Notes under the pieces: generated by a model
What the model was told of the DNA's origin: nothing
The model's input: the letters and a program-made list of their open reading frames with translations, nothing else
Database searches by the model: none
Source: a virus
DNA: 45,571 nucleotides
Direction: 5' to 3' (one strand)
Virus record (IMG/VR): IMGVR_UViG_3300045988_182896
Span: 1-45,571 of that record
Program-made: the position numbers and the translations under genes
Shown: piece by piece, positions 1-45,571 of the stretch
Position numbering within the stretch: position 1 is the stretch's first letter
Layout: the number at the start of each line of letters is the position of its first letter

Positions 1-89
1 ATTTTTTTTGCAACTTTGATGAATTCTTCTATTTTATTTGCATTATTTGCAGCCTGCACTGTTCCGTCGAAAAATGGAATTGTTTTTGG
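1..89. repeat. Terminal direct repeat, copy 1 (identical to 45483..45571)
   Basis: Read by eye: attttttttgcaactttgatgaattc...aatggaattgtttttgg is present at both window ends, 89/89 identical. It lies inside a coding region. Confidence 0.95.
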
Positions 90-782
90 CTCTACTACGC
101 TTTCTATAGATTTTAGAAGGTCCCAGTGATAATCGTAAACATGTAACGAAGTTGGGCAATGAATATAATATCCAACATCTACGCCTATCTCATTGGCTAC
201 AATTTGTTGTAGTGCTGTGAAAACAAATAAATCATATTGCAGCCCCCAAATCAAATCATTGCTGCGCATGTAAGTTGTCAAGTTCAATTTATCATTACGA
301 ATCATGAAATGCAAATTCAATGTACATGGTACATCTTTTGTTTCATCCTCTATACCAAAGTGTGTATCATAAATTCTAATCACAGCTTGCCTTGTATCTT
401 TATCGGATTTCAATTTATCGCAAAGTTGTTGAATATGCGGTGCTATATATTGACCATAAGCTGAATTTATCGTTACACCATCATCACTATATTTATCCAT
501 TGTTTTGTTGAAAAATGAAAAATCACATACATTTGCTTTATCACTAAATAACTTATATGACTCAACTAATGCATAAATCAGACTAAATTTTCGTTTTTCA
601 CTATAAAACAAATTTCGTTTTGGGTCTGTAAGAATAATTGTTGGGTTAATTAGTTCCAACGTTTTGCCAATTCTACTTTCTACTTCATTGGCATTTGTCA
701 ATATTGCATCTCTAATTTCCATAAATATTTTTGCCCAACTATTACCTTTAAAAATGTTACCATAACATTTTAAATTTTCCAT
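1..782 (-). CDS. ThyA-superfamily dCMP hydroxymethylase-like enzyme (T4 gp42-like), N-terminal 260 codons. The ORF runs off the window start and continues at 45571..45284 (326 aa in total on the circle).
   Basis: Hand translation from ATG 782..780 (SD GAGAGGA upstream) is open down to position 3, and I checked every in-frame triplet for stops. Motifs RQAVIRIYD, DVPCTLNLHF, MRSNDLIWGLQYD and TSLHVY match recalled T4 gp42 motifs RRGIMIY, FMCTNTVQY, MRSNDVVFGFRNDY and GSLHVY. Confidence 0.75.
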   Translation of the reverse strand, partial: MENLKCYGNIFKGNSWAKIFMEIRDAILTNANEVESRIGKTLELINPTIILTDPKRNLFYSEKRKFSLIYALVESYKLFSDKANVCDFSFFNKTMDKYSDDGVTINSAYGQYIAPHIQQLCDKLKSDKDTRQAVIRIYDTHFGIEDETKDVPCTLNLHFMIRNDKLNLTTYMRSNDLIWGLQYDLFVFTALQQIVANEIGVDVGYYIHCPTSLHVYDYHWDLLKSIESVVEPKTIPFFDGTVQAANNANKIEEFIKVAKK

Positions 783-866
783 TATAACTATCCTCTCATT
801 TAATCTGGGATTGTCAGATTTATTTTCGCATAAAAGACTTATAATTATATTACTTTGTAATAAGGC

Positions 867-2003
867 CTACTGTATTAACTCCAGGACATTATTAACAAAA
901 TATTTTGCGTCCATAAACTTTAAATGCTTACGCATAAGTTGTATTGCATCTTTACGCTCTTTTGGGTGCTTTAGCATATATTCACCAATGGCTCTTACTT
1001 CATCTTTGTTATGAACAACTATAATATCCTTGAGCTCATCAGGAACATATTTTCCAATTACATCATCACCAAATTCCTCAATAAATAACGGCAAGCAACC
1101 GTAAAATACAGCCTCTATTAGTCTTGCCGTCACAAAGCCCTCTTTACAATATTCACGTTTTGCTAAAAGTGGTGTAACTGCACACTTTGAATAAGCCGTG
1201 TACATGTCTGCAGTTTGTAGTCTTCTCTTAAATTTTAAGTTTGGCCAAACTTCATTGCTATTTCTACCACTTTCCAGCCAATTACCATGAACAATAGATT
1301 TATCGGGTAAATATTTATTTATACACCAATCCCTCTCATATCTGTTTCCTACATATATAACAGCATCTCTTGGTCTTTTTATTTTAAAATCATTTATATG
1401 CAAGAAATCAAATGGTATCTCAATCCTTCTTGAAACAACACTTTCTTCCTTGCTCCATTTGTTACCAAGCTCAATTACATATTTAATATTGTTTCTGTAA
1501 ATATCCCCAATTGTCATTTTGTAATCTAAATCAAAAATAACGACTGGAATATTATGCTCATTTGCATATTGAATTAGGCTCCTACATATCACTAAATCTG
1601 GTTGCCAATCATCACCATAATCAACATCAATATTTCTACCTGGTATAGGCCATCTCCATTCTATAAGCATCATGTCTAAATCTGGCATATTTTCTAGTGT
1701 TACATAACCTTGTGTATCTCCTGCCGGTTTAAAAGCCATTATTTTTGCACTCTTGTCCATGCAATTATATGCAAACCTTCTATCCCTTTCACACCATGCA
1801 GAAAACATATTCTTACTGTCAAATTTAGCACAATTTATATCCCTATCTACTGTCAAACAGTGTACTTTATGGCCAGCATCAATAAATCCTTTTATAATAG
1901 TCCACGAATAAAAGGCATTGCCATCTGGTGTGCTTATCTGTCTACCATTGGCGTTATATTTTCTATCACCAAGGAAACCCCAATAAAAATAACCGACTTT
2001 CAT
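867..2003 (-). CDS. T4 beta-glucosyltransferase-like DNA glycosyltransferase (GT-B fold), 378 aa
   Basis: ORF track. AVIYVGNRYERDWCINKYL and VTARLIEAVFYGCLPLFIEEFG resemble recalled T4 BGT segments DVIYGGSFRSGQRESKMVEFL and ITLRVWETMASDAVMLIDEEFD. The N-terminus MKVGYFYWG resembles MKIAIINMG. Its start overlaps the upstream kinase stop (ATGA). Confidence 0.6.
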   Translation of the reverse strand: MKVGYFYWGFLGDRKYNANGRQISTPDGNAFYSWTIIKGFIDAGHKVHCLTVDRDINCAKFDSKNMFSAWCERDRRFAYNCMDKSAKIMAFKPAGDTQGYVTLENMPDLDMMLIEWRWPIPGRNIDVDYGDDWQPDLVICRSLIQYANEHNIPVVIFDLDYKMTIGDIYRNNIKYVIELGNKWSKEESVVSRRIEIPFDFLHINDFKIKRPRDAVIYVGNRYERDWCINKYLPDKSIVHGNWLESGRNSNEVWPNLKFKRRLQTADMYTAYSKCAVTPLLAKREYCKEGFVTARLIEAVFYGCLPLFIEEFGDDVIGKYVPDELKDIIVVHNKDEVRAIGEYMLKHPKERKDAIQLMRKHLKFMDAKYFVNNVLELIQ

Positions 2004-2551
2004 ATGCTAACCTTACCTTCCGTAAAAACTATTTTTTTATTTTGACCAATCCCTACACCAATCCACTCATGTACCCTAGACAAATCAACACTTGATATGT
2101 CTATTGTCATGCTATCTAATTTGCTTCTTTTAACTTCACTTTCAAATTTATTTTGTATATCATCCAAATATTCTTTCATTTTTTCATCTTCACAGTATTC
2201 TCTTTTTAATAACATCAACTTTGTGCCGTTTGGTATTCTTTCTTCTATTTCATCATTTACAGCCCTTAAACATTCTATATATGTTTTACCACAAACAAGC
2301 GGTGACATACTCCTATATACCATTTCCGTTATATGAAATCTATCAACAACAATATTTGTCTGTTCCGATAATGCTTTCAGAACCTCTATTTGTGAAATCA
2401 TTGATGTTCTATATTGATTTAATCTTTCGAAATGTTCTTCACCAATCAAATTACACCCTGTATCTTTGAAGTAACACCAACCATTATTTTTCAAATGCCT
2501 AGCAAACGTTGTTTTACCTACACGATTTGAGCCTTCTAAAATTAAAAGCAT
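2000..2551 (-). CDS. Thymidylate-kinase-like P-loop dNMP kinase, 183 aa
   Basis: Walker A LEGSNRVGKTT and a DRFHITEMVY motif (Tmk-like DRY..S..AY). It lies between the NTP pyrophosphatase and the GT. Confidence 0.6.
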   Translation of the reverse strand: MLLILEGSNRVGKTTFARHLKNNGWCYFKDTGCNLIGEEHFERLNQYRTSMISQIEVLKALSEQTNIVVDRFHITEMVYRSMSPLVCGKTYIECLRAVNDEIEERIPNGTKLMLLKREYCEDEKMKEYLDDIQNKFESEVKRSKLDSMTIDISSVDLSRVHEWIGVGIGQNKKIVFTEGKVSI

Positions 2552-2570
2552 ATTTTCCTCCTAAAAGTTG

Positions 2571-2601
2571 GCGCCTAAAATCCAAACAGGAAAATAGGCG
2601 C
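2571..2601 (-). other. Intergenic hairpin (7-bp GC-rich stem GCGCCTA/TAGGCGC, 17-nt loop) between the dCTPase-like and kinase genes
   Basis: Inverted repeat read directly. On the minus strand it is followed by CAACTTTTAGGAGG and the kinase ATG. Confidence 0.35.
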
Positions 2602-2613
2602 ACTTTCTATTCA

Positions 2614-2994
2614 TTATTCATTTTTTAATATTTGCCTTTTTATGTTGCGAATATTTTTTTCTTTAAACGCTTCAACAAATTCCTCGTAAGAAAATCCTGA
2701 ATACAATACTGCATTTATCAAGAAGTGCATTGCATCCACAAGTTCATCCAATTTATCAGCATTATTATTTTTTTCTTTCCTTTTACCACCAATTAACACT
2801 TTCCAGCGATTATCAGTTTGTATAGCCTCACAAAGTTCTACTATACAAGCTGTAGTCTGCAAATAAAATTTATCTGGTAAATCTTCAGGAACATCAATAC
2901 CACATGCTAACTTTTGAAATGAAATCTGCTTTTCGAACATTTCTCTAAGTACATCATTTTCTACGCTTTTTCTGCTTTCTTCTTGGCTCATCAT
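2614..2994 (-). CDS. All-alpha NTP pyrophosphohydrolase, T4 gp56 (dCTPase/dUTPase)-like
   Basis: C-terminal KLDELVDAMHFLINAVLYSGFSYEEFVEAFKEKNIRNIKRQ resembles recalled gp56 EIKFELVDIFHFVLNMFVGLGMNAEEIFKLYYLKNKENFARQ. I moved the start to ATG 2994 (SD-like GAGGA upstream). The 3036 start in the track reads through the antisense frame of the SSB acidic tail. Confidence 0.6.
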   Translation of the reverse strand: MMSQEESRKSVENDVLREMFEKQISFQKLACGIDVPEDLPDKFYLQTTACIVELCEAIQTDNRWKVLIGGKRKEKNNNADKLDELVDAMHFLINAVLYSGFSYEEFVEAFKEKNIRNIKRQILKNE

Positions 2995-3751
2995 CTTCAT
3001 CCTCATCATCTTCATCTTCGTCTTCGTCTTCATCATCTAAATCTTCATCAAAGTCGTCTTCATCTTCGTCATCGTCATCATCATAATCGAATGGAATATC
3101 ATCATCATCCTCATCTTCATCATCTTCAACAACGCGTCTCTTACTCTTTTTACTTGAGGTTTTCTTTTTATTCTTCTTTCTTACCTCTCTCTCTTCATCC
3201 TCATCATCTAAATCTTCAGCATCAAGGTCATCATAAGGAAAAGCTTCAAGCAACATTTTCAAAACTTTTTTCTTTGAATAAGCGTTCTCATCAAGCCTAA
3301 ATCTTTTTTTATCCATTGGAACAACAGAATAATTCGTTTCTGTACCAGAACCATTTCGCTGGATAACAAAATCTCTATCGCAAATCGTTCCATACGTTTC
3401 ATACATAGACACTAATGCTGGAATTGGCGAACATTTGTTTGCCTTGAACACGAACAATTCTTTTCTTTTTGTTTCATAGTTCCAAATAGTCCATACAAAA
3501 TTGCTTGTCGTTCTTGCCTCAGGATTCTTACAATTTGGGCATTTTTCACCATAATATGTGAGACATGGGTGGTTAAATTCTCCCCATTTATCGTGGAAGT
3601 CAACTTGAAAACCTTCCTCCATATCTTGCAAGAATCTAACACGCACTTTATTGCCCGCCTTCACATAAAAAACAGCACTTTTCTTATTGCCAGAATTTGC
3701 TATTTTTGTTTTCATGATTTCAACGAGCGATTTTGAACTTTCTTTTGCCAT
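2954..3751 (-). CDS. Single-stranded DNA-binding protein with a Zn-ribbon (gp32-like architecture) and a very long acidic tail, 265 aa
   Basis: HPCLTYYGEKCPNC is a His/Cys3 candidate Zn site. The C-terminal ~90 aa are poly-D/E and contain DDDDIPF. SD GGAGGT precedes ATG 3751. The gene sits next to the primase. Confidence 0.5.
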   Translation of the reverse strand: MAKESSKSLVEIMKTKIANSGNKKSAVFYVKAGNKVRVRFLQDMEEGFQVDFHDKWGEFNHPCLTYYGEKCPNCKNPEARTTSNFVWTIWNYETKRKELFVFKANKCSPIPALVSMYETYGTICDRDFVIQRNGSGTETNYSVVPMDKKRFRLDENAYSKKKVLKMLLEAFPYDDLDAEDLDDEDEEREVRKKNKKKTSSKKSKRRVVEDDEDEDDDDIPFDYDDDDDEDEDDFDEDLDDEDEDEDEDDEDEDDEPRRKQKKRRK

Positions 3752-5361: not shown

Positions 5362-5591
5362 ATTCTCACCTCTTTTAGTTGTCCTACTTTCACTAAACAT
5401 TGCAGAAATGTAAATGCATCTTTATAGTTTATTGTTTTTCCAAAATACATCTCACATCTTCTTGCAACATCTCTCATATATGCTTTTTTAGATTTTGGTC
5501 GTTTAACACAGCAACTCATCAAATATTCAACAGCTTCATCAAAACTATTAACAACTACTCTTTCTTTATTCGAAACCACAATCTCTATCAT
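5355..5591 (-). CDS. Hypothetical protein, 78 aa
   Basis: ORF track. Its start is coupled to the upstream small ORF (TAAAATG). Confidence 0.5.
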   Translation of the reverse strand: MIEIVVSNKERVVVNSFDEAVEYLMSCCVKRPKSKKAYMRDVARRCEMYFGKTINYKDAFTFLQCLVKVGQLKEVRIW

Positions 5592-5592
5592 T

Positions 5593-5682
5593 TTATGTAG
5601 CCTCCAATTTTATTTTCTTTTTATAAAATTTTACAACAAATTCTAATCCAAAAGTTATTTCTTTGTCAAAAATTGTTTCCAT
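5593..5682 (-). CDS. Small ORF, 29 aa (METIFDKEITFGLEFVVKFYKKKIKLEAT)
   Basis: Hand-translated and below the track size cutoff. Strong SD GAGGAG lies 8 nt upstream. It is the first ORF after promoter A. Confidence 0.35.
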   Translation of the reverse strand: METIFDKEITFGLEFVVKFYKKKIKLEAT

Positions 5683-5729
5683 GATATTTTCTCCTCTTCA
5701 CTTTAGTGTTCAGTTTTTATCATGGTTCT

Positions 5730-5758
5730 ATTATAACACATTTTTAGAAAAATGTACA
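5730..5758 (-). promoter_or_regulatory. Promoter A of the conserved family: -35 TGTACA (5758..5753), 17-nt spacer, TGT-TATAAT (5738..5730)
   Basis: Minus strand reads TTTGAAAAAGTATGTACATTTTTCTAAAAATGTGTTATAATAGAA. A-tract UP-like sequence extends upstream to about 5790. Confidence 0.65.
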
Positions 5759-5777
5759 TACTTTTTCAAACTTTTTT

Positions 5778-6209
5778 TCAAAAAATTTTATTTTTTACCT
5801 CATCAAGTGCTTCATCAAATTGCTTTAAGCACATTCCATTTTCTATATACCCTTTTGCACATATGCATTTATATCTAGGTGACACTCTGGTGACATCAGA
5901 TATATATTGCTCGCACATAATATAAAATATTGCCATAACCATTTCGTTATCAATAGTTACACCTAATGACTTCCTATAATATAGTGTTGGATATCCTTCA
6001 TACATATCTAAATATTTTAAGTCATTTTCATCTATATCCCACAATAATACATCTAATACATCACCGTCTGATTTTAATAAAGTCAAATAACCCCTTCTAA
6101 AAAGCAATTTATAGCCATTTAGTTTTGCTACACCGATAATCTTTGCACTTGGGCATCTTGACCTCATTTGTTTGATATTTGTATTTGAACCATAAGCAGC
6201 ATAAATCAT
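5778..6209 (-). CDS. Gamma-glutamylcyclotransferase (GGCT)-like protein, 143 aa
   Basis: IYAAYGSNTNIKQMRSRCPSAKIIGVAKLNGYKLLF resembles the GGCT signature YFAYGSNL...R.P.A...A.L..F.L.F. LDMYEGYP supplies the candidate catalytic Glu. Confidence 0.65.
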   Translation of the reverse strand: MIYAAYGSNTNIKQMRSRCPSAKIIGVAKLNGYKLLFRRGYLTLLKSDGDVLDVLLWDIDENDLKYLDMYEGYPTLYYRKSLGVTIDNEMVMAIFYIMCEQYISDVTRVSPRYKCICAKGYIENGMCLKQFDEALDEVKNKIF

Positions 6210-6576
6210 TTTACTTCCTCCATTAAATATTCAGGTGCTAACAACAAATTTGCATTATATAGTCTAACCATATAATCACATGCATAACTTTCTCGTTTTT
6301 GAGTCAAGCAATATAGGTAAAGCGGGCAAGTTTTCTTTGTACAATTCAAAATTTACACCCCATCTCTTCTGGTAAGTATCATCAAAATTGCAAAACTAGG
6401 AACCTCATCTGTGTCACCAAAATTTATATTTATGTCCAGTGCCTTAAACAAACTGTCTAAAACTTGATTTTTTATAAATCAGTTAATGCAATATCTGTAT
6501 CGACTTTAACACAAAAATTATTATCGCTTTTAGCCATAAATATACCAATTCTTGTATTAAATAACTCTACCACCAT
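6206..6576 (-). pseudogene. Apparently disrupted gene in three collinear fragments (34 + 41 + 48 codons), separated by one -1 frame change and one in-frame TAA
   Basis: Hand translation gives MVVELFNTRIGIFMAKSDNNFCVKVDTDIALTDL* (6576..6472). The -1 frame then gives FIKNQVLDSLFKALDININFGDTDEVPSFAILMILTRRDGV (6478..6356). An in-frame TAA follows at 6355..6353. The last fragment is ILNCTKKTCPLYLYCLTQKRESYACDYMVRLYNANLLLAPEYLMEEVK, ending ATGA-coupled to the GGCT start. Confidence 0.45.
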
Positions 6577-6586
6577 TTTTTATTAA

Positions 6587-6982
6587 CTACCTTTTTTCCC
6601 AATATCCATACAAACTCTTATACCCACTATCCCAAGTATCAAAATATATACCATTAACTGATGCCACAAGATGATGAGCTACTCTCAAGACATATATACC
6701 GTCATGATTATCTCTAGTGAACTCATAAACAGTCGGACGCTTTGTCCCTTTTCCGTTACTTATGCCATGATAAATGAATCCATTCATTTTTAAATAAGAT
6801 TCATAGCAAATTTTGCTATTTGGCATACATTGAAAATTCCTTGCAATAGGAACTAACTCATCAAAAATTTCCTGCCATTCTTTTCCAATAACCTTCGTCA
6901 AAGCTCTAATTACACAATCGCCATATTCATCTTTTATGTCTTTTTTATTTGGCTGATAGTATTGATAAATTTTATTCTTCAT
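6587..6982 (-). CDS. Hypothetical protein with a possible papain-like Cys/His arrangement, 131 aa
   Basis: Start moved to ATG 6982 (SD AAGGAG), because the 7060 start would overlap promoter B. GDCVIRAL and AHHLVASVNG..FDTWD suggest a Cys-His-Asp triad, which is only a weak inference. Confidence 0.45.
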   Translation of the reverse strand: MKNKIYQYYQPNKKDIKDEYGDCVIRALTKVIGKEWQEIFDELVPIARNFQCMPNSKICYESYLKMNGFIYHGISNGKGTKRPTVYEFTRDNHDGIYVLRVAHHLVASVNGIYFDTWDSGYKSLYGYWEKR

Positions 6983-7030
6983 ATTTTGTTTCTCCTTTTC
7001 ACTTATGTGTTTAGTTTTTATCGTGATTCT

Positions 7031-7059
7031 ATTATAACATAAAAGTTCTAAAAAGTACA
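7031..7059 (-). promoter_or_regulatory. Promoter B: -35 TGTACT (7059..7054), 17-nt spacer, TGT-TATAAT (7039..7031)
   Basis: Minus strand reads TTTGAAAAGTTCAAAAAAAGTGTGTACTTTTTAGAACTTTTATGTTATAATAGAA. Confidence 0.6.
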
Positions 7060-7100
7060 CACTTTTTTTGAACTTTTCAAACTTTTTTCAAAAATAAAAT

Positions 7101-7122
7101 GGCCCATTTTTTCAAATGGACC
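7101..7122 (-). terminator. Rho-independent terminator after the accessory cassette
   Basis: Minus strand reads GGTCCATTT-GAAA-AAATGGGCC (9-bp stem, one G.U) followed by ATTTTATTTTTG. Confidence 0.65.
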
Positions 7123-7138
7123 AAATCGCATAACCATT

Positions 7139-7747
7139 TCAATTTATTTCTATGCCTATATTCTTCGTTTTTTGTCTAAACTCCTCATGAATATCTTCTT
7201 GTATGCTTGCTACATATACAGGATTATAATCAACTGCTCTTAACATTATCTTCATCCTATCAGCGGACTTCAGCTCACAATCAACATCTTTTATGAGGCA
7301 ATTTATTTTATTGAAATCTGATATTTTACCAGCATCAAATAGTTTTTTGGCACAAGATTCTAATAACTGCTTTGTATCGTTTTCCCATTCACAATAATCA
7401 TCAAACAGTTTTTCTACATATTGTGCTCTTACCTGCTGCGTCACATCACTCCTAGAATACTTTACCCAATCCTGAGGTATAATTGATATTGCTTCAATTT
7501 GAGCTTCTGGTAAAAGCTCATTATGATGGTTTATGTAATATCTCATTAGTGACCTATGTTCAGCACTTTCGACAAAATATTGATACTCATGCATCCTTTT
7601 AAATCCCATTAAACCCAAAAAGTCAAACATATCAGCCATTTGGTCATGAAACATCAACGCTTTTATTTGTCTTGCATTTACTATTTGATACACTTGCTTG
7701 CAAATATTTGCATCATTGCCATTTGCATTTTGAAACATATATTCCAT
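7139..7747 (-). CDS. Ferritin-like superfamily protein (putative), 202 aa
   Basis: FLGLMGFKRMHEYQYFVESAEHRSLMRYYINH resembles the ferritin L.GFA.FF..QS.EE.EHA.KL..Y.N pattern. Start placed at ATG 7747 (SD GGGAG); the track uses GTG 7753. Confidence 0.4.
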   Translation of the reverse strand: MEYMFQNANGNDANICKQVYQIVNARQIKALMFHDQMADMFDFLGLMGFKRMHEYQYFVESAEHRSLMRYYINHHNELLPEAQIEAISIIPQDWVKYSRSDVTQQVRAQYVEKLFDDYCEWENDTKQLLESCAKKLFDAGKISDFNKINCLIKDVDCELKSADRMKIMLRAVDYNPVYVASIQEDIHEEFRQKTKNIGIEIN

Positions 7748-7752
7748 TTGCA

Positions 7753-7905
7753 CTACTCCCTATCTAACAATTCGATTATTCTATCTATTTTTTCTTCAAG
7801 CACATCTTGATGTCTTTTTTGCTCATCATTCTTGTTAAAATTCATTAACCCCAATACCGTGTTTAAAATAGCTATATAATCAAATTGATTTTCAACAGAA
7901 CACAT
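7753..7905 (-). CDS. Small ORF, 50 aa (MCSVENQFDYIAILNTVLGLMNFNKNDEQKRHQDVLEEKIDRIIELLDRE)
   Basis: Hand-translated. It fills the gap exactly: its ATG directly follows the upstream TAA, and its TAG overlaps the downstream GTG. Confidence 0.4.
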   Translation of the reverse strand: MCSVENQFDYIAILNTVLGLMNFNKNDEQKRHQDVLEEKIDRIIELLDRE

Positions 7906-8328
7906 TTACGCAACCCTAACAATTGTTATAGCCGTATTTGCAAATGTTGTATTTACCCCAGTATTAACAAAAGTCAATGTTGTATTATTATCAACACATG
8001 AGCAAGATGGTGAAACTCTTACAATTGTTGAAAAACTCAAACTTTCTAAACCAGTAACAGCAGAACTATTTGCTGAAGCTATTGCACCTGGAACTAGTAC
8101 ACCATTTCTTGACATTTGAACAGTTATGTTGCCAGCTGTTTCACTCTCAGCACCATATCCATTAAATGTTACATAATATAAGCCCGGCGTTTTTATATTA
8201 ACCTGAGTAGAACCAGGTACAAATCTTATAGAACAACCAGTATTGTATGCATTTGAAAAGTTTATATCACCATTTGTTAATACATTTTGGCTTGTTTGAG
8301 TATATGCAAAAAGTGTGCTTTTATTCAT
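7906..8328 (-). CDS. C1q/TNF-like jelly-roll protein (resembles the BclA C-terminal domain), 140 aa
   Basis: All-beta, Thr/Asn/Val-rich sequence with GLYYVTFNGYG and a C-terminal ITIVRVA. There are no collagen repeats. The call rests on pattern resemblance only. Confidence 0.35.
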   Translation of the reverse strand: MNKSTLFAYTQTSQNVLTNGDINFSNAYNTGCSIRFVPGSTQVNIKTPGLYYVTFNGYGAESETAGNITVQMSRNGVLVPGAIASANSSAVTGLESLSFSTIVRVSPSCSCVDNNTTLTFVNTGVNTTFANTAITIVRVA

Positions 8329-22695: not shown

Positions 22696-24198
22696 CTATT
22701 CTTCAAGACCTATTGGTGGATTGTAAAATGAATCTTCTATAATTTGTCTTTCTATTGCAATTTGTCTCAGTTCTTCTTCAACTTCAGCATCATTTAATCC
22801 TCTCCATTTCTTCATATATGACTTTTTACTCATTGTTTGTTGAGCAACCTCTGCCAAGTCATTATTTTTTTCTTCTGTTTCATCCTCTGGCAACAAATAA
22901 TTATTCTCAACCACAATGCTAAAATCCACATCAGGAATTTTATCTTTTGAATATCGTAAAACAGATAAGGGATATAGTATAGACCCATCTATAATTATTC
23001 TTGCTATTTTTTCTAAAGCAGGTCTCCATGCCAACATTTTTTCTTCACATCTGGCTGTTAACCCCCAGTATATTGCCTTAAGTGTTTTGCCAGATGACAC
23101 TACCCCTTTTAATGCTTCAGGGGTAGTATCTGGCATATCAACTTGTTCTAACATGCTATTCTTTATTCTATTTAATGTATTTGTCAATGGAGATGAATAG
23201 CTCATTGTACTTTCTAGAATACCAACAGCACCCTGGAATATATCATCTTGATTTTGGTCAGACGCTAAATCCCAAAATGCACCTGGTGCAACAGATAGGT
23301 TTTTTGTAGAATTTGGGTCCATATCTCTAGACCATTTTATTGGATTCATATTTTGGCGTTCAGAATCTATATCAGCATTTGAAAGTCTACTAAACCATGC
23401 TTCATAATCATCTAACTGTTCAACTTCTGACATTCCAGACATATCACCAGTTAAGCCATCATTTATAATCACTCCGCCTGGTATATATGAAAATCTTGTT
23501 GTTTTATCTTTTTCTATTACCTCGACTTCATTACCAATACCATCATAAACAATCTCTGTTACATGACAAAAACCTTCTTGCATCCAATATTTCTTCTTAT
23601 ATATCCGCTGCTCTTCTTTGTCTTTCATATCGTTAAGCTGGTAGAAAATAACAAGCTTCGTTAATTCATCTATGTCATCATCAGCTGTTTCGTATATAAA
23701 TTCCAATGACGGCACAAATGTTATTTTTTGTACTTTAGCTAGCTCATCAAAATTAACAATATATGCTATTCTTCTGCCTATAAAACAATCTTTTGCAGCT
23801 TTAACGAGTTTTGAGCTAAATAGATTTCTAGAAAGAACATTGTTAACAAGATTTTGTAATATAGTAGCATTCTTCTTGTTTGTTTCATTATTGCTATCAC
23901 CAGCATTTACATAAAAATCTGGCGCTTTGCCAAACAAAAATCTTGCTTCCTTATTTATAATTGATGCTATCTCTCTAAAGCGCAAATCTGATGGCACATA
24001 ATTACCATTTGAGCCTTCTGTTAAAAATTTTGCACCATTATCATATATGTCATAGAATCTTAGTAAATCAGCAAATTCACTTAAGACCTTCGAGCCATAT
24101 AATCCTTCTAACTCAACGTCTATAATATTTTGTGGCATCATTTGCCTAGCATATAAGTTAAAATCTATTATTTCGCTAGCCTTTTCCATGTTAACCAA
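22696..24198 (-). CDS. Portal protein (SPP1 gp6-like), about 497-500 aa
   Basis: Size, synteny and acidic composition. The start may be ATG 24189 (MEKAS). Confidence 0.75.
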   Translation of the reverse strand: MVNMEKASEIIDFNLYARQMMPQNIIDVELEGLYGSKVLSEFADLLRFYDIYDNGAKFLTEGSNGNYVPSDLRFREIASIINKEARFLFGKAPDFYVNAGDSNNETNKKNATILQNLVNNVLSRNLFSSKLVKAAKDCFIGRRIAYIVNFDELAKVQKITFVPSLEFIYETADDDIDELTKLVIFYQLNDMKDKEEQRIYKKKYWMQEGFCHVTEIVYDGIGNEVEVIEKDKTTRFSYIPGGVIINDGLTGDMSGMSEVEQLDDYEAWFSRLSNADIDSERQNMNPIKWSRDMDPNSTKNLSVAPGAFWDLASDQNQDDIFQGAVGILESTMSYSSPLTNTLNRIKNSMLEQVDMPDTTPEALKGVVSSGKTLKAIYWGLTARCEEKMLAWRPALEKIARIIIDGSILYPLSVLRYSKDKIPDVDFSIVVENNYLLPEDETEEKNNDLAEVAQQTMSKKSYMKKWRGLNDAEVEEELRQIAIERQIIEDSFYNPPIGLEE

Positions 24199-25090
24199 CT
24201 TTCATATCATTCTTATCAACATATCCTGTTACACAATTTGACATTGGCAATTTACCAACATTAGAATCAGCATTTGTGATTCTATAACGACCATTCATTT
24301 CAATTCCATCATATATATAGTATGCACCTGTTTTTCTTGCCGCAACCTTCATTGTTGTTGAAGATACATAAAGTGGTGAATTACTAAGAATCACTCTAGT
24401 ATGTGCACTAAATGTTTGAGTCGTTTTACCAGTGTCACCCTGAGGTGTATTTTGATTTGCATTATTAGTTTTATTAAAACCATTCAAACCATTCTTCTTA
24501 ATTATCCCAGGATAATCTTTTGTTGATTTATTCATATCAACATTTCCAGTTATGCCGCTTACACTACCTTTAGATGTATACTGATGTATGCCAAAATTAC
24601 CAGTGTATGTTGGCTCTTCTCTCCATTCTGCAAGCCACGTATCATATTTTTTCTTTACATCATCATCAATTCTATTTAATAGCCAATCCTTATTAGCATA
24701 AACAGACACGTAGTAACCAGCAGATTCAACAGCTGAGCAAAAAGCTCTGATTATATCCGAAATCAATTGCTTGCCCAAATTTACTTGTGATGCGTCCTCA
24801 ATATCAAATACAACGGGATATTCAAATTGTTTACCTGCAATCCACGACAAAAACACCTGAGCTTCCTTTTTAGCATCTTCAACAGTTTTTGCATAACTAT
24901 AATGATATGCGCCAACTGGTATGCCAACAGCTTTTGCATTCTTATAGTTTTCTTCAAACTTTGAATCTTTTTGTGAACTTACCTTACCATATCCTGCTCT
25001 TATCATTGCGAATGCAATATTAGCAGCTTTAACTTTTGCCCAGTCAATAACTCCCTGATGCTTACTTACATCAATGCCAATATTAGTCAT
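24191..25090 (-). CDS. Endolysin: GH25 muramidase + C-terminal SH3b-like domain, 299 aa
   Basis: IGIDVSKHQGVIDWAKVKAANIAFAMIRAGYG and GAYHYSYA are GH25 signatures. Start set at ATG 25090, after AAGGAGG. Confidence 0.85.
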   Translation of the reverse strand: MTNIGIDVSKHQGVIDWAKVKAANIAFAMIRAGYGKVSSQKDSKFEENYKNAKAVGIPVGAYHYSYAKTVEDAKKEAQVFLSWIAGKQFEYPVVFDIEDASQVNLGKQLISDIIRAFCSAVESAGYYVSVYANKDWLLNRIDDDVKKKYDTWLAEWREEPTYTGNFGIHQYTSKGSVSGITGNVDMNKSTKDYPGIIKKNGLNGFNKTNNANQNTPQGDTGKTTQTFSAHTRVILSNSPLYVSSTTMKVAARKTGAYYIYDGIEMNGRYRITNADSNVGKLPMSNCVTGYVDKNDMKVG

Positions 25091-25493
25091 TATTTTCCTC
25101 CTTATCTTTAAAGCCAATATATTCTTGTTTTATCGTTTCTAAAACATTGCCAAATACACCATTTAACTCTGCAACAGTTCCATCAACAATAACGTTAACC
25201 ATTTCATCAGAAATGGTTATTCCTTTTTCTGCACACATCTTCTTAACTATTGCAACAGCTTCTTCTTTTTTCTTTTCACTTTCTGGTTTCTTTGTATAAC
25301 CAAGGTATTTAGCTTCTACTATATTTACGGCTTTTTTCACAAATTCAGAAATAGTAGCATATTCCTTTTCATTTGTTTTTGCTTGCAACCAACTTTTCAA
25401 TCTTTTCACAATATAAATTGATAACGCAGAAACAATTGCACCTAGCACAGAAATTATACCAGAAACAATAGTTGTCATTATTTCATTAGCCAT
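25083..25493 (-). CDS. Holin, LL-H family-like, 136 aa
   Basis: N-terminal TM segment (IMTTIVSGIISVLGAIVSALSIYIV), then a charged helical region as in LL-H holins. It lies directly upstream of the endolysin. ATG 25493 follows GAAGGTG. Confidence 0.65.
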   Translation of the reverse strand: MANEIMTTIVSGIISVLGAIVSALSIYIVKRLKSWLQAKTNEKEYATISEFVKKAVNIVEAKYLGYTKKPESEKKKEEAVAIVKKMCAEKGITISDEMVNVIVDGTVAELNGVFGNVLETIKQEYIGFKDKEENND

Positions 25494-31986: not shown

Positions 31987-32073
31987 TGGTGCAGATGACG
32001 GGACTTGAACCCGTACGATATTTCTATCAATGGATTTTGAGTCCATTGCGTCTGCCTATTCCGCCACATCTGC
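31987..32073 (-). tRNA. trnL-CAA: tRNA-Leu (anticodon CAA), type II with a long variable arm, CCA encoded
   Basis: Hand-folded: acceptor GCAGATG/CATCTGC, anticodon arm ATGGA-CTCAAAA-TCCAT, variable stem GATA/TATC, T arm ACGGG-TTCAAGT-CCCGT. Confidence 0.85.
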
Positions 32074-32121
32074 ATATAACCTGCACTCTTTATTTAATGT
32101 GTCGAGTGCACAAACACATGA

Positions 32122-32197
32122 TCGAGATAACAGGACTTGAACCTGTGACTTCGTACTCCCAAAGTACACGCACTCTACCAAACTGAGTTATATCTCG
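32122..32197 (-). tRNA. tRNA-Pro (UGG)-like paralogue with 2 extra nt between the D arm and anticodon stem; no encoded CCA
   Basis: Hand-folded: CGAGATA TA ACTC AGTTTGGTA GAGT GCG TGTAC TTTGGGA GTACG AAGTC ACAGG TTCAAGT CCTGT TATCTCG A. It may be a pseudo-tRNA. Confidence 0.55.
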
Positions 32198-32352
32198 ATA
32201 ATAATATTGAGCCAAAGGACTTTCACCTTTGGGAACAATGGTTGGATTTACATCTGCAGCTGTCTACCAACAGTCTTTCCAGGCGACTAACCATTAACTT
32301 CAGTTACATTGTTTTTTCATATCAACATATTTTAAGAAATTTTCTTTTCGGT

Positions 32353-32426
32353 CGAAGCTTTGAAAACTCGAATTTCAACCTTTCCCCTGACAAAACGGGG
32401 ACGTGCTATCCGCTACACTAAACTTC
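32353..32426 (-). tRNA. Aberrant tRNA-like gene with a 9-nt anticodon loop GUUUUGUCA (or a 7-nt loop closed by G.A, giving anticodon UUG, Gln)
   Basis: Hand-folded: acceptor GAAGTTT/AAGCTTC (one G.U), D arm GTGT-AGCGGATA-GCAC, anticodon stem TCCCC/GGGGA, T arm TGAAA-TTCGAGT-TTTCA. Only 1 nt separates the acceptor and D stems. Confidence 0.45.
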
Positions 32427-32706
32427 TAATTTCTGCTATTATCAATTAAATTATTGTACAGAAGATTTAATTGATTTTGTACGTAATAGCTATGTCAATA
32501 TGGCTTTATACTCACTACTCAACTATAACTATCATATAAGCTGTTCATCTAACTCCATTTAACTACTGCTGCTGCGTCCGAATACTAGTACCCGTAAATG
32601 GGTGATACAACAAAATCACTCGACCTAGATATTAGGCTTCGTAGCACTTATACAATATTTTAATTTTTGACCTTGTCAGTTATAAGTATAATTTGTTTTT
32701 AATAAT

Positions 32707-33165: not shown

Positions 33166-33216
33166 GTTACTTCTCCTTTAATTTCAATGATTTATACTAT
33201 TTAAAATAGCCTATAA

Positions 33217-33293
33217 TGGTCGAGATGACAGGATTTGAACCTGCGACCTCTGCAACCCAAATGCAGCGCCCTGCTCAACTAGGCTACATCTCG
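33217..33293 (-). tRNA. trnP-UGG: tRNA-Pro (anticodon UGG), canonical cloverleaf, CCA encoded
   Basis: Hand-folded: CGAGATG TA GCCT AGTTGAGCA GGGC G CTGCA TTTGGGT TGCAG AGGTC GCAGG TTCAAAT CCTGT CATCTCG A CCA. Confidence 0.85.
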
Positions 33294-37283: not shown

Positions 37284-37511
37284 TTAATATAACTCCTTGT
37301 TTAAGAATTCTTCCATCTCATCTTCTGATTTTATATTTCCTATTTTGTTTGCTAATCCCAAAATTGCTTTTGTATCACCACTTTTAAGCACATCAATCAC
37401 TCTTGCACTTTCAAATTTTGATGTATACGCCTTCTCACATTGACAGCAAGGTTCCTCTTGAACATCTTTATCAAAATATCTGCAATACTGGCATGCTTGT
37501 ACTTCACTCAT
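37284..37511 (-). CDS. Small Cys-rich protein, 75 aa
   Basis: CQYC...CCQC. Confidence 0.5.
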   Translation of the reverse strand: MSEVQACQYCRYFDKDVQEEPCCQCEKAYTSKFESARVIDVLKSGDTKAILGLANKIGNIKSEDEMEEFLNKELY

Positions 37512-37960
37512 ATTTTTTCTACCTCAATTCCTGCTTCATTTAATATATCTTTAGACAATTCGTCATTATAATCGTTTTTGTAAAATATATGTTTTATTCC
37601 GCAATTTATTATTGATTTTGCACAATTTATACATGGAAAGTGTGTACAATATAAAACTGCTCCATTTATGCTAATACCAATATTTGCCGCAGACAATATT
37701 GCATTCTCTTCCGCATGTACAGCCAAACAATATTCGTGTCCTTCTCCATGACCAAATCCAAGTTTTCTTTTCCTACAATATCCTATATCACACAAGCAAT
37801 TTTTTATCCTTGATGGTGCACCAGAATATCCAGTTGCAACTATTCTTCCATCTTTTACGATTATTGCTCCCTTTTGCTCACTAAAGCATGTACTTCTACT
37901 TGCAGTTAACTCTGCTATTTTCATAAAATACTCTTGCCAAGTTGGTCTTTTTTTATCCAT
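37508..37960 (-). CDS. dCMP deaminase (ComEB/T4 Cd type), 150 aa
   Basis: HAEENAI and the PCINCAK zinc-binding motif, with the overall cytidine/deoxycytidylate deaminase pattern. Confidence 0.85.
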   Translation of the reverse strand: MDKKRPTWQEYFMKIAELTASRSTCFSEQKGAIIVKDGRIVATGYSGAPSRIKNCLCDIGYCRKRKLGFGHGEGHEYCLAVHAEENAILSAANIGISINGAVLYCTHFPCINCAKSIINCGIKHIFYKNDYNDELSKDILNEAGIEVEKI

Positions 37961-41567: not shown

Positions 41568-41586
41568 ATTTTTAACCTCTCTATTT

Positions 41587-42614: not shown

Positions 42615-45284
42615 TCACCAAATTTTTAAATTTTTAGAATAAATTTGTGAGTTGTAAGCTAATACTCTCCGCATATATTTTTTTTCAACAAACTCAAATG
42701 CTCCAGCTTCCCTCAATATTTCAATTGTTCTTCTTGTAATTGCCCTCCGTTTCATTTTTGGCAACTCTTGCCATTTTTCTTCAAAATCTGGATAATCAAT
42801 ATATGGCCCGTTTTCTATGATTATTTGCGCAGCTTTTTCACCTATACCTTTTATTGCACTTAACCCTTCCTGTATTACTTTATCGCCATGAAATTCTGTT
42901 ATTTCGTAGTTTACCGACCCATTAACATGCGGAAGCATTATAATACAACCATCTTTTACAGCTTTATTCTTGTATACGTCCCTCTTTTTATCATCACCTT
43001 CAAATTTTAAAGTTGCACACCAAAAATCTATAGGATGTTCCAATTTTAATTCCATTGCCTTGTAGCTAATTAGACTATATGCCGCACAATGCCCTTTATT
43101 AAATGAATATAATGTAACCCTATCATATAGCTTTTTTGCATCTTCTTTCGTGAAACCAGAGTATTTTACCGCACCTTTCACAAATGTATCTCTCAATGGG
43201 TCTTCATTCTCATCACTGCTTTGTTTTAATGATTTCATAACCTTGTCGACATCTTGCCATTTCATATGTGCAATATTTCTGCAAATTCTCATGACGTGCT
43301 CTTGGAATATAATAGTACCATATGATTCCTTTGTATACTCAAACCATGGCATATTCCTGTTATTTGTTATGTTCAATTTGCCTTCTACAAAATCATCTAA
43401 AACCCCCAACTGTAATGGCGCAGGTCTATTTAGCGCATTTGCTGCAATTAAATCTTGTATGTTGTCACATTCTATTCTTTCTAGTATTTCTTTTGCTGTA
43501 CCTTTTTCAAATTGGAATACACCTTCAGTTCTGCCTTCCCTAAATGCCTCAAATACATCATCATTATCAACATCTTGCCAATTTATCTTTTCTCCAGTAG
43601 TTCTACATATTTCATGCAAAATCGATGCTGTTGACAATCCTAATATATCCATTTTCAAAACATTTATTTTACCCAAATCATTTAAATCAAAACTTGTTTG
43701 AAGTATTCCGCCCCTTTTCATCAATGCTACTCTTTCACCAATTGGTCCAACTGTTATTGCGACACCAGCAGCATGCTTTCCAATAAACCTAACTTGACCA
43801 TATAATCTACAAAAATGCTTTACGATATTTTTGTATTTTCTATCGATTTGCCTTGCTAATGGATTATGCATTATCACATTTTCATCAGCTGTATCATCAA
43901 CAACAAGCTTTTCCAAAACATCCTTGAACTTCTTTTTATCTTCTGGCTCCATCTCGTATACCTTAGCTAAGTCGTTTGCTAAATTTTTTACTTTATAGTA
44001 CCCAAATGTTGCTATTTGTGCAGCTCTACCCTCATGACGTTTCATGATATATTCAAGAATTAAATGCCTTTCAGCTTGACCAAAATCCATATCAATATCT
44101 GGCAATTTCTTTTTATCTGGGCGTAAAAACCTTTCAAAGTCTGTCCCCATAACTATTGGGTCAACTTCTGTTATTCCTATCAAATTAGCAACTAGACTTC
44201 CACAAACAGAACCTCTTCCTGGTCCAACAGGGATGTTATTGTCTTTCGCGTATTTTACTATGTCATAACAAAGTAAAAAATAATCTTGTAAACCCAAATC
44301 GTCTATAATAACACCAAGCTCATATTTTGCTCTTTTCTTATATTCTCCAAATGATTTTTTACTTAATCCCTCTTTCTTTACTTTTCTTTTTAGCCCTCTT
44401 TTTGTTAAGCTCCTTAATTTCTCATCCGATGGCATTCCCCAATCAAATGTTGGTACTGATTCAGCAAATTCAAGTTGTACATCACATCTATTAGCTAGCT
44501 TTTGTGTATTTGCTATAGCTTTTAATGCTCTTTTACCATGCATTTCATTTGTTTTTAAGTAAACTTCTTCACCAGTAGGCATATACCGTTCTGAATAATC
44601 CGCTATATTTACGTGACCAGCTATCTTATGCATGACCAAATACGTATCGTATTCTTCCTTTTTTGTATAGTGACTATCACATGTTACTATGCACTCTATG
44701 CCTAACTTTTCACCTAAATCTAAAACAAATTCATTTGCACCTTCTTGGTCACAATCATCTAAATGATACGGCATTATTTCCATATAGAATCTGTCACCAA
44801 AAATTTCTTTAAATTTTTTTGCAGCCTTTATAGCATTGCTTTTCTTGCCCTGTAAAAACATATTTGGTATATACCCTGCAACACAAGCAGAACTAACAAT
44901 CAAACCTTCATTATATTTCTTTAACAATTCAAATGTTACAGTTGCGGTTCTATAAAAATATTTATCATTCGCTTCAGTTAATAACTGCGATAAATTTTTA
45001 TAACCAACATTATTCATAGCAAAAATACACAAATGATATTTCTTTTTTTCTTGATTAAATTTAGGCTGAAAGTATGCCTCTACACCAAGTATTGGTTTTA
45101 TGCCAACTTCATTACATGCTGTATAATGTTCTATAATGCCGGATACTGTACCATGGTCTGTTAAGCCTAAAGCAGTTTGTCCCATATCCTTAGCATGTTT
45201 TGCAGCATCTATAGCTTTACCATAACCATCAAATTGTGAATGTTGTGCATGTCTATGTAAATTAACAAAGCAATTTTTATACAT
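42615..45284 (-). CDS. dnaE: DNA polymerase III alpha subunit-like replicative polymerase (PHP + DnaE core), 889 aa
   Basis: The N-terminal PHP motif NLHRHAQHSQFDGYG...LGLTDHGTVSG and a DnaE-like core (GPGRGSVCGSLVANLIGIT, PDIDMDF). Start set at ATG 45284, overlapping the upstream TAA (TAATG). Confidence 0.85.
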   Translation of the reverse strand: MYKNCFVNLHRHAQHSQFDGYGKAIDAAKHAKDMGQTALGLTDHGTVSGIIEHYTACNEVGIKPILGVEAYFQPKFNQEKKKYHLCIFAMNNVGYKNLSQLLTEANDKYFYRTATVTFELLKKYNEGLIVSSACVAGYIPNMFLQGKKSNAIKAAKKFKEIFGDRFYMEIMPYHLDDCDQEGANEFVLDLGEKLGIECIVTCDSHYTKKEEYDTYLVMHKIAGHVNIADYSERYMPTGEEVYLKTNEMHGKRALKAIANTQKLANRCDVQLEFAESVPTFDWGMPSDEKLRSLTKRGLKRKVKKEGLSKKSFGEYKKRAKYELGVIIDDLGLQDYFLLCYDIVKYAKDNNIPVGPGRGSVCGSLVANLIGITEVDPIVMGTDFERFLRPDKKKLPDIDMDFGQAERHLILEYIMKRHEGRAAQIATFGYYKVKNLANDLAKVYEMEPEDKKKFKDVLEKLVVDDTADENVIMHNPLARQIDRKYKNIVKHFCRLYGQVRFIGKHAAGVAITVGPIGERVALMKRGGILQTSFDLNDLGKINVLKMDILGLSTASILHEICRTTGEKINWQDVDNDDVFEAFREGRTEGVFQFEKGTAKEILERIECDNIQDLIAANALNRPAPLQLGVLDDFVEGKLNITNNRNMPWFEYTKESYGTIIFQEHVMRICRNIAHMKWQDVDKVMKSLKQSSDENEDPLRDTFVKGAVKYSGFTKEDAKKLYDRVTLYSFNKGHCAAYSLISYKAMELKLEHPIDFWCATLKFEGDDKKRDVYKNKAVKDGCIIMLPHVNGSVNYEITEFHGDKVIQEGLSAIKGIGEKAAQIIIENGPYIDYPDFEEKWQELPKMKRRAITRRTIEILREAGAFEFVEKKYMRRVLAYNSQIYSKNLKIW

Positions 45285-45571
45285 TACTTGTACCACCTTT
45301 TGAAATAACATTTATAATTTGCTATGTCTTCACTTTCCAAATCTACATAATCTAATAAACCAAACTTGTACAATATTTCATTTATTATTAACTTCATTTG
45401 TATATTACTGTCATTATAGTTATCTAAAAATCTTAGTATTTTAACTTTATATAATATATTATTATTAACTGATTCGGCTTGCATTTTTTTTGCAACTTTG
45501 ATGAATTCTTCTATTTTATTTGCATTATTTGCAGCCTGCACTGTTCCGTCGAAAAATGGAATTGTTTTTGG
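45284..45571 (-). CDS. C-terminal part of the dCMP hydroxymethylase-like gene (continuation of 782..1 across the junction)
   Basis: 45483..45571 duplicates 1..89. The frame is continuous (K-K-M-Q-A-E-S across the junction). The total is 981 nt on the 45,482-bp circle. Confidence 0.75.
   Translation of the reverse strand, partial: PKTIPFFDGTVQAANNANKIEEFIKVAKKMQAESVNNNILYKVKILRFLDNYNDSNIQMKLIINEILYKFGLLDYVDLESEDIANYKCYFKRWYK
45483..45571. repeat. Terminal direct repeat, copy 2 (identical to 1..89)
   Basis: Direct comparison of the two window ends. Confidence 0.95.

Follow-up and report, generated by a model that had tools for sequence, protein, structure and literature searches.

The window studied here is the whole 45,571-nucleotide stretch of the virus record IMGVR_UViG_3300045988_182896 (IMG/VR), and it carries on its minus strand a cassette of four genes encoding a nucleoside triphosphate (NTP) pyrophosphatase, a nucleotide kinase, a glycosyltransferase (GT), and a homologue of thymidylate synthase (ThyA) that is a predicted deoxycytidine monophosphate (dCMP) hydroxymethylase. 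We propose that in this phage cytosine is replaced by 5-hydroxymethyl-deoxycytidine (hm-dC) before replication and then glycosylated, and this chain of steps, taken whole and as stated, is on balance probable. An initial annotation had read the four genes, together with a dCMP deaminase, as a T4-like cytosine-replacement set; its observation was confirmed and its interpretation was partly supported. The four open reading frames (ORFs) that it had described were all present, adjacent and in a row, and so was the deaminase. The features concerned are as follows.

2614..2994, minus strand: all-alpha NTP pyrophosphatase of the dimeric-dUTPase/MazG superfamily, 126 aa (Pfam dUTPase_2)
2000..2551, minus strand: Tmk/YorR-like P-loop nucleotide kinase, 183 aa (profile of relatives; AlphaFold2 fold)
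867..2003, minus strand: GT-B glycosyltransferase, 378 aa (Pfam Glyco_trans_1_2, E 4e-7; AlphaFold2 fold)
1..782, minus strand: ThyA homologue, first 260 codons with the entire catalytic core (Pfam Thymidylat_synt)
45284..45571, minus strand: C-terminal part of the ThyA homologue, over the circular junction (continuous reading frame)
37508..37960, minus strand: dCMP deaminase, 150 aa (Pfam dCMP_cyt_deam_1, E 8.5e-23; PHROG 174, E 4e-52)

Bases 1-89 of the window are identical to bases 45483-45571, and by this 89-bp terminal identity the window is a circular genome of 45,482 bp. The ThyA-like ORF thus runs from 782 to 1 and goes on at 45571..45284, with 326 aa in total. Translational coupling had been claimed for all four genes; it held for the kinase and GT genes, which overlap by 4 nt (the kinase stop over the GT start), and not for the other two pairs, separated by gaps of 62 nt (pyrophosphatase/kinase) and 84 nt (GT/ThyA). 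The same gene order was repeated in two independent assemblies from other sequencing runs (ERR2843667 and ERR13911657).

The ThyA homologue matched Pfam Thymidylat_synt (PF00303) with an E value of 1.3e-18 and 67.5 bits (cut-off 24.3), and the thymidylate synthase residues C146, R166, S167, H207, Y209, E58, and Y94 were all kept. Its top sequence match in the PDB was MilA, a CMP 5-hydroxymethylase (E 6e-19), and among the best matches were also 9iqu/9iqc, labelled as thymidylate synthase and having Asn at the equivalent of D169. The resemblance to T4 gp42 pointed out earlier was borne out by 29% identity over the catalytic core (pairwise E 1e-8), for which we used a gp42 sequence confirmed to be identical to PDB 1b49. 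In the alignment KDVPCT lay over SDFMCT, and MRSNDLIWGLQYD over MRSNDVVFGFRND. In E. coli numbering, the window enzyme has Cys146, L143D, a retained Asp169, and N177D. Position 177 reads LQYD in the window against LPFN in E. coli and FRND in T4 (Asp179 of T4), and position 143 reads KDVPC against ALAPC in E. coli and SDFMC in T4 (Asp145 of T4), while at position 169, in the same alignment, the window has RSND (Asp) and RB69 gp48 has RSQN (Asn). According to the published residue code, N177D confers dCMP specificity, an acidic residue at 143 instead of the water-excluding Leu correlates with a hydroxymethyl product, and D169N is diagnostic of flavin-dependent 5-hydroxy-dCMP synthases (PMC13326640). 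The Cys146/L143D/N177D/Asp169 signature argues against a dTMP synthase, a dUMP hydroxymethylase of the SPO1 type, and a 5-hydroxy-dCMP synthase of the RB69 type; the enzyme is predicted to be a dCMP hydroxymethylase, that is, a 5-hydroxymethyl-dCMP (5-hm-dCMP) synthase.

By overall identity (34-40%) the enzyme groups with ThyA homologues of Firmicutes phages, namely SPO1/SP10, VPE25-like phages, Lactobacillus phage ATCCB, and Agathobaculum phage AB434P2. Asp177 was present in every Firmicutes-phage ThyA homologue that was fetched and aligned except SPO1 gp29, which has Asn177 as E. coli ThyA does, and the D143/D169/D177-type signature was seen also in the VPE25-like phage vipetofem, ATCCB, and AB434P2. 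Metagenomic association work had earlier tied ThyA homologues to cytosine modification. The window enzyme ends in a lineage-specific tail of ~95 aa (residues ~232-326), most homologues being 220-260 aa long; phmmer found no match for the tail in the related loci fetched, and the ThyA homologue of locus L013, also of 326 aa, has an unrelated tail.

The likeness of the first gene product to T4 gp56 was upheld, and the gp56 peptide that the initial annotation had quoted was exact. The pyrophosphatase matched Pfam dUTPase_2 (E 3e-8, 34.5 bits, cut-off 22.9) and PHROG 173, NTP pyrophosphohydrolase (E 3e-14), and its family profile aligned with T4 gp56 in hhalign with a probability of 92.7% (E 4e-7, 32% identity over 76 columns); a single-sequence search of the PDB gave nothing significant. 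The acidic residues of the ExxE...ExxD motif (E53, E56, E84, and D87) were conserved, and an independent gene call gave the same start and the same length of 126 aa. From its pairing with a ThyA homologue of the dCMP type, it is a candidate dCTPase, which would remove dCTP and supply dCMP. The dCMP deaminase, distal to the cassette, is a conserved companion of it, lying inside the fetched flanks of 19 of the 29 IMG/VR loci described below.

The kinase belongs to a very divergent family, of which a word-indexed protein search recovered 4 relatives and an exhaustive search 62. With the single sequence nothing significant was found in the PDB, whereas the profile of 42 relatives matched SPbeta YorR (1.3e-14) and thymidylate kinases (from 4.6e-8), and Pfam Thymidylate_kin was matched by 35 of these 42. 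The AlphaFold2 model had a mean predicted local distance difference test score (pLDDT) of 88, and its top 50 Foldseek hits were all YorR or thymidylate kinases, in agreement with the Tmk-like P-loop kinase initially described. The Walker A motif GxxxxGK[TS] and the motif DRFH..E..Y are kept; in the family G12/K13 and D70/R71 are invariant, and T14, T15, H73, E76, and Y79 occur in at least 90% of members. The kinase is not a homologue of T4 gp1: the gp1 family (PF21448 DNMK) had no match in the window kinase and a weak one in 1 of the 42 relatives, and 1dek/1del were absent from the Foldseek top 50. It is instead homologous (hhalign 95.8%, E 8e-9) to RB69 gp45, the unexplained "nucleotide kinase" in the arabinosylation cluster of that phage. 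From its context the enzyme is a candidate 5-hm-dCMP kinase. Separately, the N-terminal half of the kinase family was seen fused to domains of the nucleoside 2-deoxyribosyltransferase type (PF15891/PF05014) in three proteins of 312-315 aa (P0134-P0136); this family includes the nucleotide N-glycosidases MilB and DNPH1, another link of the kinase to modified-nucleotide metabolism.

The GT had a single Pfam match at E<=0.1, the generic CgeB-like Glyco_trans_1_2, phmmer against the PDB found nothing significant, and tblastn against 50,697 deposited phage records found no match. In a large protein database there were more than 500 homologues, almost all on phage-sized metagenomic contigs. An AlphaFold2 model was built on 30 homologues (pLDDT 93) and compared with the PDB by Foldseek, where T4 beta-glucosyltransferase (BGT) entries took ranks 1-4 and 6-7, with E values of 2.7e-9 to 5e-8 and template modelling (TM) scores of 0.55-0.66. 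The identity with T4 BGT was 14%. The GT profile aligned in hhalign with the exact T4 BGT sequence over the C-terminal domain (probability 84%, E 7e-6), and the pairs R224/R195, R294/R269, and E297/E272 of GT and BGT were matched, R221 being beside R191; these GT residues are all invariant in the family. Arg191, Arg195, Arg269, and Glu272 are the residues of BGT that bind the UDP phosphates. The N-terminal domain gave no profile alignment with BGT, and the invariant FDLDYK (D158/D160) and STPDGN (D27) motifs are, by position only, candidate counterparts of the catalytic base Asp100 and of Glu22. The resemblance to BGT that had been noted therefore stood for the fold and for the C-domain motifs and did not extend to the Pfam T4 BGT family: the GT is, by model and profile, BGT-like in fold and donor-site motifs, and outside the BGT sequence family, in a family that is uncharacterised. 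It is a candidate transferase for placing a sugar on the 5-hydroxymethyl group. Two other proteins were compared with it: kinship with the base-proximal GT of RB69 (gp47:46) was ruled out (hhalign 0.1%), and the annotated "beta-glucosyltransferase" of Lactobacillus phage ATCCB was barely related (hhalign 19.6%).

Searching with the GT family gave 29 IMG/VR loci, on which the synteny counts are based. In 21 of them the arrangement of the window was found, with genes for a primase, an SSB-like protein, the pyrophosphatase, the kinase, the GT, the ThyA homologue, a PolIII-alpha-type polymerase, and RecA, and in most of these the dCMP deaminase lay farther downstream. Among the others, three loci end at or just past the GT and four high-G+C loci have no nearby ThyA homologue. 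A ThyA homologue was located within a few kb of the GT, mostly directly adjacent, in 24 phage loci (22 from IMG/VR and 2 others), and D/E143, D169, and D177 were present in 24/24 of them; the same signature in 13 homologues from genome records brings the GT-linked homologues that keep it to 37/37. In one lineage the two enzymes are a natural fusion of 613 aa, with the GT N-terminal and the ThyA homologue C-terminal (protein P0083; L001:8001-9842 and L002:4661-6502). This lineage is syntenic with the window and encodes a FolD-like methylene-tetrahydrofolate dehydrogenase/cyclohydrolase (L002:13247-14053), an enzyme that produces the one-carbon donor, and in L001 a MazG-type pyrophosphatase holds the position of the dUTPase_2-type enzyme. 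Taking into account the conserved synteny, the shared ThyA signature, and the GT-ThyA fusion, we consider the four genes to be one functional unit.

It was also possible to see sugar-nucleotide genes beside some members of the GT family. A UDP-galactopyranose mutase (Glf) adjoins the GT in L013:6892-7998, which has the synteny of the window, and in L003:9109-10230, L011:9141-10262, and L021:9094-11151, and a protein of the RGP type (UDP-arabinopyranose mutase family) lies near it, with the kinase between, in the high-G+C loci L032:6281-7420 and L035:5534-6775. These neighbors are hints that members of the family transfer furanose sugars. Among the 50 window ORFs scanned there was neither of the two mutases, nor another sugar-nucleotide gene (Glf, RGP, and nucleotidyltransferases being looked for), nor a second thymidylate synthase, nor an integrase.

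The family, at 25-28% identity, was also present in actinomycete chromosomes, as in Actinoplanes sp. (L041:1283-10712) and in the equivalent loci L042-L054, which come from Salinispora, Streptomyces, Saccharopolyspora, Actinomadura, and others. There the GT homologue is part of a conserved cluster, with a SAM methyltransferase, an NAD epimerase/dehydratase, a carbamoyltransferase, and a ThyA homologue (D143/D169/D177) as companions, along with genes for a P-loop kinase, another methyltransferase, a histidine phosphatase, and two APH-type kinases. The cluster has the look of a biosynthetic one, so far undescribed, whose product would be a modified cytosine nucleoside or nucleotide; a chromosomal DNA-modification island is another possibility. 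A literature search on it found nothing.

What was observed is family membership, an active-site signature, and conserved linkage, and on these the following pathway is proposed. The pyrophosphatase would hydrolyse dCTP (probably dCDP or dUTP too) to the monophosphate, so that ordinary C would be kept out of the phage DNA and dCMP passed to the ThyA homologue. The latter would add the one-carbon unit of 5,10-methylene-tetrahydrofolate at C5 of dCMP, and water, not hydride, would resolve the exocyclic methylene intermediate to give 5-hm-dCMP. The Tmk/YorR-like kinase would convert this product to the diphosphate and the host NDP kinase would carry it to the triphosphate, which the PolIII-alpha-type polymerase of the phage would use to put hm-dC at every C. 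The BGT-like GT-B enzyme would then move a sugar from a UDP-sugar to the hydroxymethyl group on DNA; a host UDP-sugar would serve, because no sugar-nucleotide gene was among the ORFs scanned. The dCMP deaminase would turn part of the dCMP into dUMP for dTTP, in a genome of 32% G+C. The virion DNA that results would resist restriction enzymes, and probably some CRISPR-Cas effectors. What each enzyme takes and makes, which sugar is moved, that replacement is complete and not partial, and that glycosylation comes after replication are points that we infer. Glucose is not to be assumed, because relatives of the GT pair with UDP-galactopyranose or UDP-arabinopyranose mutases.

Several points weigh against this pathway. 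Its chemistry in the window phage is a prediction, neither the dCTP specificity of the pyrophosphatase nor the hm-dCMP specificity of the kinase is evident from sequence, and the rule for L143D is a correlation and no proven determinant. The GT falls short of the Pfam T4 BGT family, and in Foldseek other GT-B enzymes come close behind BGT (4.7e-8 against 2.7e-9). Its family occurs in the apparent small-molecule cluster of actinomycetes, where a nucleotide or nucleoside acceptor is possible. The authors of the work on RB69 and DLP3 were unable to demonstrate activity of the base-proximal GT on DNA, and they leave undecided when the first sugar is attached (PMC13326640). The T4-like logic of the initial annotation survived all the in-silico tests run, with the stage of GT action unproven and the sugar not assignable as glucose.

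The alternative that survived best leaves the early steps unchanged and places glycosylation at the nucleotide: the GT would act on 5-hm-dCMP, the immediate product of the adjoining ThyA homologue, the kinase would be dedicated to the bulky glycosyl-hm-dCMP, and the polymerase would incorporate a pre-glycosylated triphosphate. We regard this as rather unlikely, though the fusion of the GT to the ThyA homologue fits it, as does the occurrence of the kinase/GT/ThyA trio in three gene orders (that of the window, that of L003, and that of RB69, DLP3, and RL38J1). Tight linkage and fusion may, however, mean no more than that the cassette is mobile. RB69 and DLP3 retain, besides a deoxynucleoside monophosphate (dNMP) kinase of the gp1 type, an extra Tmk-like kinase that is homologous to that of the window, and single base-proximal GTs were inactive on DNA containing 5-hydroxycytosine (5hoC-DNA), the authors leaving open whether nucleotide or DNA is the acceptor (PMC13326640). 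The actinomycete ThyA-like, carbamoyltransferase, GT, and kinase genes, accompanied by methyltransferases and APH-type kinases, have a small-molecule look that agrees with it too. On the other side, the sugar modifications of DNA whose stage is known are all post-replicative (T4 alpha- and beta-GT, the TET-dependent phage GTs, and the third arabinose of DLP3), the closest solved structure, T4 BGT, is a DNA enzyme, and the polymerase would have to take a sugar-bearing dNTP at every C. Protein charge was tried as a proxy for the acceptor and does not discriminate: T4 BGT is basic (isoelectric point 9.05) and the GT family mostly acidic (median ~5.5), but the BGT-like GT of vipetofem and GT1 of RB69 are equally acidic. 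A broader form of the idea holds that the Tmk/YorR-like kinase, the GT, and the ThyA homologue are a self-contained factory of pre-glycosylated nucleotides, present in RB69, DLP3, and RL38J1 as well as in gut-type siphophage contigs by the hundred; sugar would enter DNA via the polymerase, and in the actinomycete clusters, which have the same three enzymes, this chemistry would be turned to small molecules. This wider reading seems to us unlikely, a shade more so than the narrower one. On the T4 precedent and the BGT-like fold, we favour the post-replicative model.

A second alternative concerns the product of the ThyA homologue, which would be 5-hydroxy-dCMP (the case in RB69, DLP3, and RL38J1) or 5-methyl-dCMP (the case in XP12), with any sugar attached via another linkage. 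The same trio does serve 5-hydroxy-dC glycosylation in RB69, DLP3, and RL38J1, some relatives of the GT have a UDP-galactopyranose mutase beside them, which RL38J1 also has, and others an RGP-type UDP-arabinose mutase, and 9iqu/9iqc, with Asn at the D169 equivalent, stood among the best PDB matches. Nevertheless, we find it very improbable: D169N is absent, Asp169 being present in the window and in 37/37 GT-linked homologues, L143D fits the hydroxymethylases, the top PDB match is itself a hydroxymethylase (MilA), and in the 5-methyl version the methyl group would give the GT no acceptor.

Least likely of all is that the genes serve the ordinary supply of dTTP to an AT-rich genome, or else hydroxymethyl-uracil synthesis as in SPO1, the GT having its target outside DNA, for example in cell-wall polymers of the host; the Pfam names (dUTPase_2, Thymidylate_kin, and Thymidylat_synt, with the GT in the generic CgeB-like Glyco_trans_1_2), the presence of the dUMP hydroxymethylase SPO1 gp29 among the closest cultured-phage ThyA homologues (34% identity), and a dCMP deaminase that would feed dUMP agree with it, but Asn177, present in SPO1 gp29 and E. 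coli ThyA, is Asp in the window enzyme and in 37/37 linked homologues, L143D cannot be reconciled with the Leu that shuts water out of dTMP synthases, the GT lies in the replication module, beside or fused to the ThyA homologue, and not in a lysogenic-conversion or structural module, and T4 itself has a dCMP deaminase.

The rest of the window, with ~32% G+C and nearly every gene on the minus strand, contains the following features.

Siphovirus tail module: tape measure, SPP1-type Dit, and Sipho_Gp37
Head and packaging genes: SPP1-like portal, HK97-like/E-type capsid protein, and large terminase
24191-25117: GH25 lysin
31987-33293, minus strand: four tRNA genes, Leu-CAA, Pro-UGG (two), and Gln-UUG
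41349-41600, minus strand: SpoIIID-like small DNA-binding regulator, just upstream of RecA

Considering the tail module, portal, capsid protein, terminase, GH25 lysin, tRNAs, and SpoIIID-like regulator, the window is a siphovirus of a Gram-positive host. The tRNA cluster, the SpoIIID-like regulator, and the GH25 lysin indicate that the host is an endospore-forming member of the Firmicutes, probably of the Clostridia; a distant relative, L040 (39% GT identity), was binned in a metagenome-assembled genome of an uncultured member of the Clostridiaceae. When the first 4 kb of the window were searched as DNA against phage records, the sole match was one of 213 bp with ~70% identity to an unannotated faecal scaffold.

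Some further observations were made around the cassette. An SSB-like protein (2954-3751, minus strand; PHROG 1607/9721) has a very acidic low-complexity C-terminal tail with long D/E runs, and its gene shares 41 nt at the 3' end with the start of the pyrophosphatase gene; another SSB-like ORF is found at 38052-38504. Within the replication module there is a gamma-glutamyl cyclotransferase/AIG2-like protein (5778-6209, minus strand; Pfam GGACT, E 5e-13), which is kept in the near-identical contigs L056 and L057. The window and these two independent contigs each have an end within the ThyA-like gene, at ~720-780 nt from the gene start for the window and L056 and at 225 nt for L057, and such ends may mark a variable or hard-to-assemble spot.

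Anti-restriction modification of cytosine was already known in T4 and in Enterococcus siphophages. New here are a distinct, abundant, and uncharacterised GT family, with no match in the deposited phage records searched, the fact that a Tmk/YorR-like enzyme is the sole candidate for the hm-dCMP kinase, and the great compactness of a cassette that is carried by a large clade of siphophages not yet cultured. If the proposed pathway is true, these siphophages, a large group with genomes of 45-60 kb and probably with gut Clostridia as hosts, would bear fully substituted, sugar-coated cytosines. This would affect the behaviour of their DNA in sequencing, cloning, and restriction-based virome protocols, and also which host defences act on it (restriction-modification, type IV enzymes, CRISPR, and DNA glycosylases). 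The GT family could moreover give a new enzyme, possibly with a new sugar such as a furanose, for the labelling of 5-hydroxymethylcytosine (5-hmC).

By comparison with the hmC pathway of T4 (gp56, gp42, gp1, cd, and the alpha- and beta-glucosyltransferases), the proposed pathway has the same logic and the same set of activities. The ThyA homologue shares with gp42 the catalytic Cys and the equivalents of Asp179 (N177D) and Asp145 (L143D), the pyrophosphatase is a remote homologue of gp56, the GT shares with BGT the GT-B fold and the UDP-binding Arg/Arg/Glu, and the deaminase would convert dCMP to dUMP for dTTP supply as cd does. The differences are that the window is a 45-kb siphovirus with a PolIII-alpha-type polymerase and T4 a 169-kb myovirus, that the kinase is Tmk/YorR-like and that of T4 is gp1, and that the genes are contiguous in the window and scattered in T4.

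The initial annotation had considered such a combination typical of large T-even myoviruses of Proteobacteria and unexpected in a small AT-rich siphovirus with lysis genes of the Gram-positive type, an expectation contradicted by the precedent of VPE25 and VFW, by the ThyA signature of vipetofem, ATCCB, and AB434P2, and by the 21 syntenic loci out of 29. The Enterococcus faecalis siphophages VPE25 and VFW have cytosines resistant to bisulfite and to restriction, and a BGT-like gene (Duerkop et al. 2016, PMC4999554). They are lytic siphophages, as the window phage would be, and infect a Gram-positive host; that their cytosines are modified is an experimental result. In the VPE25-like vipetofem a small P-loop kinase adjoins the ThyA homologue (D143/D169/D177), and a BGT-like GT is located two genes downstream. 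These three phages differ from the window in their genomes of ~86 kb and in a second sugar-related gene. The vipetofem GT is of a different, more T4-BGT-like family, which matches the window GT in the C-domain only (hhalign 89%).

The same module of kinase, GT1, and ThyA homologue occurs in RB69 (p045-p048), DLP3 (078-080), and RL38J1 (214-216), where it makes glycosylated 5-hydroxycytosine (PMC13326640). The kinases are homologous, and the ThyA homologues on both sides have N177D and an acidic residue at 143. Theirs, however, have D169N, use flavin, and make 5-hydroxy-dCMP, whereas that of the window retains D169; no relationship between their GT1 and the window GT was detected, and they add sugar-nucleotide biosynthesis genes and a gp1-type dNMP kinase. 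Since the window has neither a second dNMP kinase nor sugar-nucleotide genes among the ORFs scanned, its cassette would be a clean system for the question, posed by RB69 and DLP3, of nucleotide versus DNA as the acceptor.

The 5-hydroxymethyluracil pathway of SPO1 and SP10 is similar in its ThyA homologues (~34-37% identity, with L143D) and in its Firmicutes host, and differs in that SPO1 gp29 keeps Asn177, for dUMP, where the window enzyme has Asp, for dCMP. MilA, from mildiomycin biosynthesis (PDB 5b6d/5jnh), shares the D143/D169/D177 signature with the window ThyA homologue, but its substrate is the ribonucleotide CMP and its pathway leads to an antibiotic, not to DNA precursors. In Lactobacillus phage ATCCB a thymidylate synthase, a beta-glucosyltransferase, and a UDP-galactopyranose mutase are annotated in a row.

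Finally, an analogous module was found in Agathobaculum phage AB434P2 (L005:28-8307), a cultured 44-kb phage of gut Clostridia. It comprises a pyrophosphatase homologue, a cytidylyltransferase-like protein with an HxGH motif, a BGT-like GT, a ThyA homologue, and two unannotated ORFs, the larger of which (5575-8307) sits where the window has PolIII-alpha. Its GT aligned with the C-domain of the window GT family (hhalign 90%). The ThyA homologue, annotated as "deoxyuridylate hydroxymethyltransferase," carries Asp177, of the dCMP type, and this annotation is probably wrong. AB434P2 would be a tractable model phage.

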